Translations under genes and position numbers: made by a program
Shown here: piece by piece, positions 2,347 to 5,682 of the stretch
How positions within the stretch are numbered: position 1 is the stretch's first letter
How the letters are laid out: each line of letters begins with the position of its first letter
From: an archaeon
GTDB taxonomy: Archaea; Nanobdellota; Nanobdellia; Pacearchaeales; GW2011-AR1
Reading direction: 5' to 3'
DNA: 11,475 nucleotides
Assembly (NCBI GenBank): GCA_043810775.1
Contig: JBDRNU010000008.1
Location: 1 to 11,475 of the forward strand
Notes under the pieces: generated by a model
Databases searched by the model: none
Told to the model about the DNA's origin: nothing
Seen by the model: the letters and a program-made list of their open reading frames with translations, nothing else

Positions 2347-2414
2347 AAATAAATAAAGGCATAAGCTTTTTAAACCATATCTATTACTTAATTCAATGAT
2401 AGATAAATTTAATA

Positions 2415-2448
2415 GGAAAGTTAGCCAAGAAAACCTTGGTTGTCAGGC
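2415..2448 (+). promoter_or_regulatory. Conserved 5' leader motif upstream of rpsJ (uninterrupted copy)
   Basis: GGAAAGTTAGCCAAGA-AAACC-tt-GGTTGTCAGGC ends 2 nt before ATG 2451 and recurs at 5054-5142. It can form an AGCCAAG/CTTGGTT stem. Confidence 0.65.
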
Positions 2449-2450
2449 AA

Positions 2451-2762
2451 ATGACATCTAAAGTAAGAATAAAACTAAGTAGTGTCGATATAGACATGCT
2501 TAATCAGATTTGCGATATAATCAAAGATATAGCTGAAAAATCAGGAGTCCCTATTTCAGGGCCAATACCTATTCCTACTAAAAAGCTTAAAATTACTACA
2601 CGAAAATCTCCATGCGGAGACGGTACAGCTACTTTTGATAGGTTTGAGATGAGAATTTACAAGAGAATTATAGACCTTCCTGCCAATGACCGGGTTCTTC
2701 ACGCTATTATGAGAACTTCTATTCCTCGTTCTGTAAGCATTAAAATTGAGATGAAAAACTAG
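2451..2762 (+). CDS. rpsJ: 30S ribosomal protein S10 (uS10), archaeal type
   Basis: RIKLSS..SGPIPIPTKKLKITTRKSPCGDGTATFDRFEMRIYKRIIDL is the archaeal S10 signature. ATG 2451 gives 103 aa. Confidence 0.97.
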   Translation: MTSKVRIKLSSVDIDMLNQICDIIKDIAEKSGVPISGPIPIPTKKLKITTRKSPCGDGTATFDRFEMRIYKRIIDLPANDRVLHAIMRTSIPRSVSIKIEMKN

Positions 2763-2987: not shown

Positions 2988-3165
2988 TCAAAAAGTTCCT
3001 TGAGTTTACCACACCTTAAAAGGTGTAGTTTGTTGGAACTTTAGGATGCTCAGAAATGCTCATCCACATCCTAAAGCTTCAGGAATGAAAATTCCTGATA
3101 GTCATCAAAAATCTTTGATTTTTGAGAGATATGGTTTTCGCTTAGCATTTCTGACATAATAATAG
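2988..3165. mobile_element. Composite palindromic repeat, copy 2 (apparently complete; ends approximate)
   Basis: 3019-3165 is near-identical to 1-147. The left hairpin TA-CCACACCT-TAAA-AGGTGTAG-TTTG (3007-3032) is enclosed by AAAGTTCC(2992-2999)/GGAACTTT(3035-3042). It interrupts a reading frame. Confidence 0.75.
3077..3127. repeat. Twin bulged-hairpin unit, copy B
   Basis: Identical to 59-109. Confidence 0.85.
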
Positions 3166-4649: not shown

Positions 4650-4731
4650 GCCCACGTCGCATAATGGTATTGCACGGGACTGGAACTCCCGGCCCGTTTT
4701 GGGCGTCCAGGTTCGATTCCTGGCGTGGGCG
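4650..4731 (+). tRNA. tRNA-Ser(GGA)
   Basis: Acceptor GCCCACG/CGTGGGC with discriminator G. D arm GCA/TGC. Anticodon stem CGGGA/TCCCG with loop CT-GGA-AC. Long variable arm GCCC/GGGC. T arm CCAGG-TTCGATT-CCTGG. No CCA encoded. Confidence 0.97.
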
Positions 4732-4883: not shown

Positions 4884-5053
4884 CGAGCGATTTCACGAGG
4901 CAATCTTTATTAATTAAATAACAAGTGAGGTCGCGAGTTTTCTCATTTCTTATTAATTAAATTAAGGTAACAAAGAAACTCAAAGCTTAGCTTTAAATAC
5001 TAATTTAACTATATATATATAATAAATATTAATTAAATATAAGCTATCTAAAG

Positions 5054-5142
5054 GGAAAGTTAGCCAAGACTTCAGAAATAGAAGCATTTCTGAGAGTGCT
5101 CGGAAATCCAAAGATTTCCGACAAAACCGTAGGTTGTCAGGC
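5054..5142 (+). promoter_or_regulatory. Second copy of the rpsJ-type leader, interrupted by a 54 bp insertion
   Basis: GGAAAGTTAGCCAAGA (5054-5069), then the insert, then AAACC-gta-GGTTGTCAGGC (5124-5142) directly before ATG 5143. Confidence 0.65.
5070..5123. mobile_element. Twin bulged-hairpin unit, copy C
   Basis: CT-TCAGAAAT-agaagc-ATTTCTGA-g-AG (27 nt) plus TG-c-TCGGAAATC-caaa-GATTTCCGA-CA (27 nt). Absent from the homologous site at 2430/2431. Confidence 0.75.
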
Positions 5143-5682
5143 ATGGCAAAAAAGGTGAATAAAAAGCAATTATCAGGAAAAAGCTGGAAATCAATTATCC
5201 TTGCACTGGCTATAGCTATAATTCTTACAGCATTTATATTTCAGGTTATTAATACTATATACGAACGTCCTGAATGGACAGACTTCTGCCCAGAATCCCC
5301 TCCACTCTATCTAGATGAGCAAAACTGCACTCTAGCAGGAGGTATGTGGACAGGTTCAGCATTTACAGACCCTTCAATGCCAAAATCAACTGGCTACTGC
5401 GATATAAACTATAAATGCCAAAAAGAATATGAATCAGTAGATGTAGTCTACCGGGAAAAAGTATTTATTATTGCAGTAATCACAGGGCTTATAGTTTTAA
5501 TAGTAGGAATAATCTTAGGGCTACAGAGTGTTTCTCTCGGGTTAATGGGCGGCGGGGTCATCACTATGTTCATAGGAACAATTCAGTACTGGGATAGGCT
5601 TGGAAAATATCTAAGGCTGATAATTCTCGGAGTAGTCTTAGCAATTCTAATCTGGATAGGATACAAGAAACTAAAGCACTGA
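5143..5682 (+). CDS. Hypothetical membrane protein (4 predicted TM segments, Cys-containing extracellular loop)
   Basis: One N-terminal and three C-terminal hydrophobic segments, with four Cys in the loop. ATG 5143 preferred over TTG 5134. Confidence 0.8.
   Translation: MAKKVNKKQLSGKSWKSIILALAIAIILTAFIFQVINTIYERPEWTDFCPESPPLYLDEQNCTLAGGMWTGSAFTDPSMPKSTGYCDINYKCQKEYESVDVVYREKVFIIAVITGLIVLIVGIILGLQSVSLGLMGGGVITMFIGTIQYWDRLGKYLRLIILGVVLAILIWIGYKKLKH

Follow-up and report, generated by a model that had tools for sequence, protein, structure and literature searches.

The window analysed here comprises the first 11,475 nt (forward strand) of contig 8 (JBDRNU010000008.1) of the Pacearchaeales assembly GCA_043810775.1 (995 kb in 26 contigs, 33% GC, 80% complete; hereafter 'this genome'), and contains two forms of a 34-nt motif standing immediately upstream of two unrelated genes, rpsJ and a membrane-protein gene (Table 1). 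The short form (2415–2448, +) reads GGAAAGTTAGCCAAGA-AAACC-TT-GGTTGTCAGGC and is followed by AA and the rpsJ ATG at 2451; the long form (5054–5142, +) is composed of both arms of the short form, the loop GTA and a 54-nt insert (5070–5123), and runs directly into the ATG at 5143. Sequence and coordinates agree with an earlier note on this DNA, which had described a shared leader in the same orientation at both sites, ending 2 nt and 0 nt before the ATGs. The motif is also, as the note had observed, richer in GC than its surroundings (0.47 in the short and 0.44 in the long form, against 0.16–0.31 in 100-nt flanks and 0.33 genome-wide) and free of a canonical Shine–Dalgarno (SD) sequence: no GGAGG-type sequence occurs in it, and its tail GGAAAG shares only 3 nt with GGAGG. 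Complementarity to the 3' end of 16S rRNA (GGATCACCTCCT), which the note had proposed as a check, was not seen when judged by eye, with no duplex computed. The note could name no Rfam family, and cmscan of the whole window (E up to 10) returned no match at either form of the motif.

Table 1. Features of the two motif-bearing loci, in window coordinates
Feature	Position	Strand	Remarks
TATA-like box of rpsJ promoter, TTTTTAAA	2367..2374	+	in relatives kept as AAnnTTTTTAAAC
AT-rich 5' module of rpsJ unit, ATGATAGATAAATTTAATA	2396..2414	+	opens with upstream ATG at predicted transcription start
Single-stranded tail GGAAAGTTA	2415..2423	+	family consensus GGARRGTTA
Imperfect hairpin GCC-AA-GAAAACC-TT-GGTTGTC-A-GGC	2424..2448	+	fold and covariation
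rpsJ (ribosomal protein S10)	2451..2762	+	Pfam PF00338 Ribosomal_S10, 6e-28; ATG 2 nt past motif
TATA box CTTTAAAT of membrane-protein gene, canonical	4991..4998	+	kept in same-genus genome G001
AT-rich 5' module of membrane-protein-gene unit, ATAAATATTAATTAAATATAAGCTATCTAAAG	5022..5053	+	begins at predicted transcription start
Motif 5' part, tail and beginning of 5' arm (GGAAAGTTAGCCAAGA)	5054..5069	+	
Nested double-hairpin element, stems TCAGAAAT/ATTTCTGA and TCGGAAATC/GATTTCCGA	5070..5123	+	separate dispersed repeat family
Motif 3' part, AAACC-GTA-GGTTGTCAGGC	5124..5142	+	
Membrane-protein gene, 179 aa, without Pfam family	5143..5682	+	ATG abuts motif; G001 ortholog 84% identical

This genome holds five full copies of the motif, short on contigs 8 and 23 and long on contigs 8, 3 and 25, and contig 15 carries a 3' remnant consisting of the last 11 nt. 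All five and the remnant lie in sense orientation and end 0–2 nt 5' of an ATG, with open reading frames (ORFs) of 103–682 aa behind the full copies. Enrichment directly 5' of start codons, set beforehand as a test in the earlier note, was therefore found in 5/5 full copies plus the remnant, against a chance rate of 1.5% for a random intergenic 35-mer to end 0–3 nt before the ATG of an ORF of at least 60 codons (200,000 placements). The genes behind the six copies encode S10, S3Ae, an AAA_23/SMC_N ATPase, a PUA-domain protein and two membrane proteins without a Pfam family. Degenerate copies recovered in this genome with a covariance model stand 1–3 nt 5' of tRNA-Asp and tRNA-Leu and 4 nt 5' of a ThrRS-editing-domain gene, and the leaders of tRNA-Glu(TTC), tRNA-Gly(TCC) and tRNA-Gly(GCC) resemble the motif by eye. 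Contigs built from three DNA runs were short and of low depth, and some end at the motif.

The segment at 40010–40098 of contig 11, called by ARAGORN as 'tRNA-Stop (tta)' with an intron, looks by eye like an intron-bearing tRNA-Gln(TTG) with a truncated leader unit on its 5' side (..CATACTCAAGGGAAAGTTTAC). The assembly also contains two S3Ae genes (contig 23 4717–5274 and contig 11 1419–1967) with 52% mutual identity; the motif-bearing gene resembles that of the same-genus genome G001 (69%), and the other is about as close to the query as are genes of other genera (44–56%), which would fit a paralog, a transferred gene or contamination of the bin. One in-frame stop is present in each of the S3Ae matches from five other genomes.

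Downstream of its tail the motif forms an imperfect hairpin, in which GCC pairs with GGC and GAAAACC with GGTTGTC throughout the family. Across 25 distinct variants, 90.8% of cells were paired and 4/10 pairs were compensatory; the third basal pair was CG in 13, GC in 5, AU in 4 and UA in 3 variants and was unpaired in none. Shuffling never matched the covariation score (0/500 shuffles), and slid controls were only 21–49% paired. The 9-nt tail GGARRGTTA was near-invariant in the same variants, with changes confined to positions 4 and 5, and the family unit can be described as this tail followed by a 25–28-nt imperfect hairpin with a loop of 2 to 5 nt. Subtypes are distinguished by paired changes at the base (GCC/GGC, GCA/TGC, GCT/AGC or GCG/CGC) and by the inner stem (GAAAACC/GGTTGTC, GGAAACC/GGTGTCC or AGAGAACT/AGTTCTCT). 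Of the pairings suggested in the earlier note, AACC/GGTT falls inside the family-wide stem, whereas AGCCAAG/CTTGGTT is peculiar to the rpsJ copy. K-turn, hammerhead and pistol motifs were ruled out by eye, the AA/A internal loop being without tandem G-A and CUGAGAG not matching CUGANGA.

The motif does tolerate the structured insertion described in the note, but the central insert of the long form belongs to a dispersed repeat of its own that has become nested there, and is no expansion of one RNA. An nhmmer profile of three long forms recovered the insert by itself at other loci (E from 9e-6 upward), and a regular expression for two successive TCAGAA..TTCTGA hairpins gave 22 strand matches at ~15 loci of this genome, including ~55–107 and 3074–3125 of the window. 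The long form folds as a four-way junction in which the basal GCC/GGC pairs are retained (fold z-score −4.2), and in the long copy on contig 3 each of the two inner hairpins shows compensatory changes. Metagenomes also contain long forms in which the insert occupies the identical position; one abuts tRNA-Thr (L165) and others abut an ATG (L163 and L169/L188, by eye).

Double-hairpin repeats outside the motif occur in both orientations, for example at 144492–144540 and 145133–145187 of contig 15, where they flank the RNase P RNA gene (144540–144917), and some copies read UGAUGA..CUGA on one strand, faintly resembling C/D boxes. A ~120-nt composite repeat, in which an outer stem (CTCAGAAATGC..GCATTTCTGA) surrounds the double-hairpin element, lies at 4–125 and 3022–3142 of the window, near position 4780 of contig 5 and at both ends of contig 22, with weak matches to Rfam ES173 (E 2–4); given this location at contig ends, it is a probable cause of assembly breaks. 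Two contig ends each hold a part of the 16S rRNA gene (contig 3 86839–87649 and contig 15 160260–160879).

Exact matches to a 16-mer of the motif were found in 1/400 other genomes of the order, and two of eight single-mismatch matches were true variants. A covariance model built from 16 short forms, by comparison, matched in 17/100 other genera of the family (E ≤1e-3), with lineage-specific subtypes. A 21-nt pattern identified 31 loci in metagenome contigs. A type-3 pattern (32 nt) matched at 16 loci, whose records bear the titles Woesearchaeota or Nanoarchaeota, with one further record under Patescibacteria. The 16-mer alone gave at least 117 loci in genome contigs, with the 3' module in none of the matches listed, which we regard as chance-level noise; a two-mismatch pattern in 60 relatives likewise gave no 3' module among the listed matches outside this genome. 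In viral contigs the type-1 pattern matched at two loci, both without the 3' module, and the type-2/3 pattern at none.

The context of 28 complete type-1 copies (5 from this genome, 23 from metagenomes) was tabulated. Sixteen end 0–2 nt 5' of the ATG of a reading frame that is 45 aa or longer, and at one more the contig end cuts the locus after AT. Two stand 0–1 nt 5' of a tRNA 5' end (tRNA-Thr by ARAGORN; a tRNA-Val-like gene by eye), three contigs carry the motif in the position-37/38 intron of one tRNA-Arg(TCT), 1 nt 5' of the 3' exon, and one copy is followed by a duplicated 3' part of tRNA-Val. The remaining five lie in frame within coding sequence, in a DTD-like gene, ELP3, the C-terminal region of S3Ae, the N-terminal region of uS2 and the N-terminus of an ORF (L183, by eye). 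Together with other types, seven in-frame copies were found, of which 7/7 keep the frame and contain no stops; the peptide they encode varies with the reading frame (GKVSQEN.., GKLAKKT.. or REGYAKE..).

Similar contexts recur among 27 inspected covariance-model matches across the family. Seven end 0–1 nt 5' of an ATG; a further copy is intronic, at position 37/38 of a tRNA-Lys (G012) and again 1 nt 5' of the 3' exon; three run antisense inside or adjoining tRNA genes; a tRNA 3' fragment beginning in the T-loop comes after four or five others; and one, of type 3, occupies the same ELP3 loop as a type-1 metagenome copy (L184) in another reading frame; five were left unclassified. Two tandem arrays of three units each, with a period of 55–57 nt (G001 contig 6 7708–7801; G035, of another genus, contig 3 478–567), occupy the place of the single 57-nt unit that leads tRNA-Leu(CAA) in this genome (contig 6 29907–29941), and copy number thus varies. 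Among the 16 exact type-3 loci, 8 end 0–1 nt 5' of an ATG, 2 are in coding sequence and 3 are antisense to tRNA parts, and the leader hosts, named by eye from their N-termini, are RNase J-like, SMC (two), Spt4-like, L37Ae, L39e, S3Ae and uL11. S3Ae is a host of the motif, intact or degenerate, in this genome, G026, G011 and L269, with recurrence at this gene in 3/30 sampled genomes, and EF-1beta, SMC and the ELP3 loop are recurrent hosts across lineages as well. Two metagenome loci (L167 and L187) have 62 nt plus the motif in common and different genes downstream. The same 62-nt segment, also present in L205, holds a second degenerate motif-like unit (GGAAAGGTCTTGGAAAACATAGGTTTTCTGAG), and units can therefore stack in tandem 5' of protein genes also.

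These copies are set in a genome that is predicted to be mainly leaderless. Of 930 long ORFs, 171 have a TTTWAA hexamer starting 27–30 nt 5' of their first ATG, compared with ~6 at each other position, and there are few SD-like words. At rpsJ, a TTTAAA hexamer starts 27 nt 5' of the upstream ATG at 2396, inside this genome-wide peak, and the AT-rich module beginning there is homologous to modules ATGATAAT..TTAAATTTARGC 5' of the copies on contigs 3, 23 and 7. A TATA-like hexamer lies 26–32 nt before position +1 of 17/29 tRNAs and of none of the leader-bearing ones, a spacing that implies putatively leaderless tRNA transcripts; the genome also has an RNase P RNA (100 bits). ARAGORN called introns in 13 tRNAs. 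The tRNA-Ser(GGA) at 4650–4731, the only strong Rfam match in the window (57 bits), has a TATA-like box 39–40 nt upstream, further than in most tRNAs. No fixed distance from TATA to motif was found among 54 copies (6 to 57 nt), and at six type-3 loci a canonical TATA box ends 22–24 nt before motif base 1 (by eye from the flanks).

Filled and empty sites can be compared directly, as the motif is absent at 4/4 compared orthologous sites of the same-genus genome G001. There, the membrane-protein gene is leaderless, with CTTTAAAT, 22 nt and the ATG; here the box is kept and followed by 23 nt, a 121-nt unit (5022–5142) and then the G001-matching ATGGCAAAAAAGG. At the SMC-like gene of this genome the ancestral start ATGATAATAAAAA is retained; after it comes the unit, and then 13–14 nt of that start are repeated (0/200 shuffles). 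The stop codon of an upstream L44e-like gene (named by eye) overlaps the S3Ae ATG in G001, whereas here a 64-nt unit separates the two and opens with ATGATAAT, which is the start of the SMC-like gene. The rpsJ gene of G001 has a 25-nt AT-rich leader without the motif, and the motif was found in 0/9 rpsJ upstream regions of relatives. ELP3 in L184 contains exactly 36 extra nt (12 aa) relative to the empty site of this genome, AAAGGAAAA, which itself resembles the 5' end of the motif. In other lineages, too, units open with ATG-led fragments, such as ATGGCA.. 5' of EF-1beta, and one such fragment (ATGAGCACAAAC..) is common to three loci with different downstream sequence.

We consider there to be about an even chance that the 34-nt motif is one copy of a small, structured, duplicative leader-element family of this DPANN archaeal family. 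Repetition, structure, positional precision, insertion polymorphism and variety of contexts are all observed. The repeated occurrence, the patchiness across genomes, the alleles with and without the unit, the nested and tandemly amplified forms, the flanks carried along and the tolerance of copies in introns and reading frames together favour a duplicative element that is probably mobile, now or recently, over a regulator of one particular gene. Conserved TATA boxes upstream suggest that transcription starts 5' of the motif and reads through it, so that the hairpin would form a new 5' leader at the AUG. We infer, moreover, that the covarying hairpin is recognised by some trans-acting factor. 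A unit would comprise an AT-rich 5' module of ~20–32 nt, often starting with the first bases of a former host gene, then the motif (the 9-nt tail GGARRGUUA and the 25–28-nt imperfect hairpin) and optionally the nested double-hairpin repeat. Such units would settle, by insertion or copying, precisely on the 5' edge of a transcription unit and, in a mostly leaderless host, would land between an existing promoter and the first base of a functional RNA. They would then be transcribed as a new 5' leader with the hairpin abutting the AUG or tRNA position +1, and copies may survive where they are harmless or useful, in leaders, introns and in-frame protein loops. A function through an upstream-ORF peptide was ruled out by eye, as the short frames that begin at the upstream ATGs fall in every one of the three phases and encode peptides unrelated to each other, and as ATA replaces ATG in the copy at 5022.

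Several points weigh against this reading. A selfish repeat alone leaves the 0–2-nt precision unexplained, and recurrence at the same genes (S3Ae, EF-1beta, SMC and the ELP3 loop) in distant lineages suggests selection for function. Transcription of the motif is predicted from promoter spacing, and the set of variants used for covariation was collected with a structure-aware model, which biases it toward paired matches. No transposase partner was found: Y1_Tnp (PF01797), the TnpB zinc ribbon (PF07282) and RVT_1 (PF00078) were unmatched in this 80%-complete genome, other transposase families not having been searched. Two tyrosine recombinase genes are present. Nor is there a regular target-site duplication, a significant flanking direct repeat being found in 4/32 copies, or five counting L180, which lies outside the 70-nt search span; their lengths are 6, 6, 7, 14 and ~65 nt.

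An unlikely alternative is a selected cis-acting RNA leader, in which a conserved factor would bind or cut the hairpin that heads mRNAs and pre-tRNAs; coding-sequence and antisense copies would then be by-products. Either an endonuclease would cut at the 3' foot of the hairpin, yielding leaderless mRNAs and mature tRNA 5' ends, or the hairpin would set the stability or translation of highly expressed genes. The hairpin covaries, and its 3' end lies 0–3 nt from start codons, from tRNA +1 and from the 3' splice sites of two tRNA introns (tRNA-Arg in L186 and tRNA-Lys in G012, both 1 nt); units run from predicted transcription starts to just 5' of the start codon, as a discrete leader RNA would, and the distance from GGAAAG to ATG stays at ~36 nt despite a loop of 2 to 5 nt. 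Downstream genes often belong to translation or transcription (S10 and S3Ae by Pfam; uL11, L37Ae, L39e, EF-1beta, Spt4 and RNase J by eye from N-termini), and S3Ae recurs in the 3/30 sampled genomes though copies per genome are few. A precedent is known from Haloferax, where a 5'UTR intron is cut by the splicing endonuclease (PMC7714728).

However, 7/7 coding-sequence copies are in frame and stop-free in essential or conserved genes (such as ELP3, DTD, uS2 and S3Ae), and because these copies keep the frame the motif is no sufficient cleavage or shut-off signal. The empty rpsJ sites of 9/9 relatives and the 4/4 empty G001 sites speak against a selected leader, as do the antisense copies, and with RNase P RNA present tRNA leaders need no special signal. 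At the two sense intron copies, hand inspection gave 2–3 of 4 central pairs (C32-G and U33-G with motif GG), so that no canonical bulge–helix–bulge (BHB) could be drawn; the constrained fold is a multibranch loop, which broad-specificity endonucleases may accept. The earlier note's cis-regulatory RNA element holds in so far as the motif is structured, in sense orientation and close to start codons, but its more specific suggestion of a ribosomal-protein leader or riboswitch-like element fails: none of the nine relatives' rpsJ genes carries the motif, the same element precedes membrane-protein genes, an SMC/Rad50-like ATPase, a PUA protein and tRNAs, and further copies are intronic in tRNA genes, antisense to tRNAs or translated in frame within coding sequences. 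Random placement of other copies, which the note had named as evidence to the contrary, was not found in this genome and was found in part across the family.

The precision of the 3' junction can be approached from three sides. Selection for leader function is countered, as regards a sufficient cleavage signal, by the seven translated copies; promoter geometry is countered by the non-AT TATA position, the covariation and the long forms; targeting of RNA 5' ends or transcription starts fits the largest number of junction types and is countered by the lack of a reverse transcriptase match (RVT_1) and by the operon-internal S3Ae site of G001. That the unit spreads via RNA ends, or integrates at the open promoter complex, is in our view improbable. 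In the first case a discrete leader RNA, extending from where transcription begins as far as the hairpin's 3' foot, would be set free, become attached to abundant RNAs at their 5' ends and then be fixed in DNA. This idea alone would account for units that begin at transcription starts and carry the opening bases of an earlier host gene, for 3' ends that meet leaderless start codons, tRNA +1, the 5' ends of tRNA 3' exons and T-loop fragments, and for the preference for ribosomal-protein genes and tRNAs as targets. If true, either route would represent a new archaeal targeting of the first transcribed nucleotide, by which leaderless genes become leadered.

A DNA-level promoter, with GGAAAG as a box resembling the B recognition element (BRE) ~36 bp upstream, the dyad between TATA region and start as operator, and transcription starting right after the motif to yield leaderless RNAs, is very unlikely. 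The constant ~36 nt from GGAAAG to ATG or tRNA +1 fits BRE/TATA geometry, some variants have a real TATA box in place of TTAGCCAAG, 23 nt from the start (GGAAAGTTTAAAAG in G428 and GGAAAGTTTGATAAAG 5' of tRNA-Leu), and reuse of homologous promoters 5' of unrelated genes is on record (PMC3575422). In type 1, though, the TATA position is TTAGCCAA, which is not AT-rich as a core promoter should be, and canonical TATA boxes lie further upstream of the motif. All four Watson–Crick combinations at one basal pair point to base pairing and not to a dyad read by protein, and loop length is variable (2 to 5 nt). Long forms, furthermore, shift GGAAAG 54–57 nt away yet abut an ATG or tRNA (three in this genome and L165; L163 and L169/L188 by eye).

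We consider it also very unlikely that the copies are scars of site-specific integration, with the motif as the attachment-site arm of tRNA-targeting integrative elements. The anticodon loop and T-loop are classic crossover sites of integration. Behind four or five copies stands a duplicate of a tRNA 3' portion that starts in the T-loop, giving direct repeats of 20–65 nt (L180, G151, G027:C18, G013:C12 and possibly G429:C31), intron copies sit at position 37/38, this genome has its two tyrosine recombinase genes, and a mobile element has been proposed as disruptor of a tRNA gene in Caldiarchaeum (PMC3293823). But only ~59–79 nt lie between the repeats, most copies are 5' of protein genes with no tRNA nearby, coding-sequence copies are left without explanation, and the two recombinases may be Xer-type housekeeping enzymes. 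An archaeal BHB intron removed from RNA is ruled against by the 7/7 in-frame, stop-free coding-sequence copies.

A leader element of the kind favoured here shares traits with several known repeat families. Repetitive extragenic palindromic sequences (REPs), organised in bacterial interspersed mosaic elements (BIMEs), and pneumococcal BOX elements combine a conserved tail with a 20–40-nt imperfect palindrome, are modular with or without a middle module and form lineage-specific subtypes. The element shares the tail and palindrome, the modular forms and the lineage-specific subtypes, and has the imperfect palindrome with conserved 5' tail expected of REP/REPIN sequences. REPs are mobilised by a REP-associated tyrosine transposase (RAYT, a Y1 transposase), usually lie 3' of genes and occur in both orientations; no RAYT (PF01797) was found in this genome. 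Yeast Ty3, a 5-kb retrotransposon with an integrase, integrates within 1–2 nt of tRNA gene starts (RNA polymerase III). The membrane-protein gene in the window likewise has an insertion exactly at a leaderless start, but no such enzyme is known for the element and the S3Ae site of G001 is operon-internal. CRISPR repeats do not fit, as the tandem arrays have identical 20-nt spacers and the remaining copies are solitary.

[quoted passage not shown] The element also shows the presence/absence polymorphism between close relatives that is typical of MITEs (the G001 sites; ELP3 filled in L184 and empty here). In contrast, it has no terminal inverted repeats apart from the hairpin, no target duplication of fixed length and no transposase partner that could be found; it is much shorter (34–37 nt), its 3' end lies 0–2 nt from the start codon or tRNA +1, and its host is archaeal, the review listing no DPANN example (PMC10969869). 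Rickettsia palindromic elements, in the same review, are palindromic repeats in frame within conserved protein genes, but these are ~150 bp and mostly intragenic, whereas the copies here are mostly leaders with a frame-dependent peptide (PMC10969869). In Thermoproteales, transposed tRNA introns and split-tRNA leaders are cases in which different tRNAs have nearly the same short sequence in their introns, as well as ahead of tRNA parts (PMC4090602); our element is found mainly in mRNA leaders and also in coding sequence, with no canonical BHB by hand. Putative mobile promoters, closely similar upstream sequences 5' of unrelated genes (PMC3575422), recall L167/L187, although the conserved core here is a base-paired hairpin downstream of TATA and not the promoter boxes. 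The element thus fails the defining tests of the families compared, namely fixed target duplication, transposase partner and intron removal, and we therefore place it as a small dispersed structured repeat with an unusual placement rule.

A full-text literature search on DPANN or Woesearchaeota repeats, introns and leaderless genes yielded no description of such an element, and small dispersed repeats in DPANN archaea are barely described. In practical terms, the element breaks assemblies, misleads the calling of tRNAs and start codons, and is a possible strain-level marker. Its wider significance lies in the placement rule, by which the 3' end of the element meets the first base of a functional RNA in an otherwise leaderless lineage. 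If the element is passive, it offers a natural experiment in which essential leaderless genes such as S10 and S3Ae tolerate a structured, SD-less leader at the AUG; if it is active, it points to a new processing or targeting activity.

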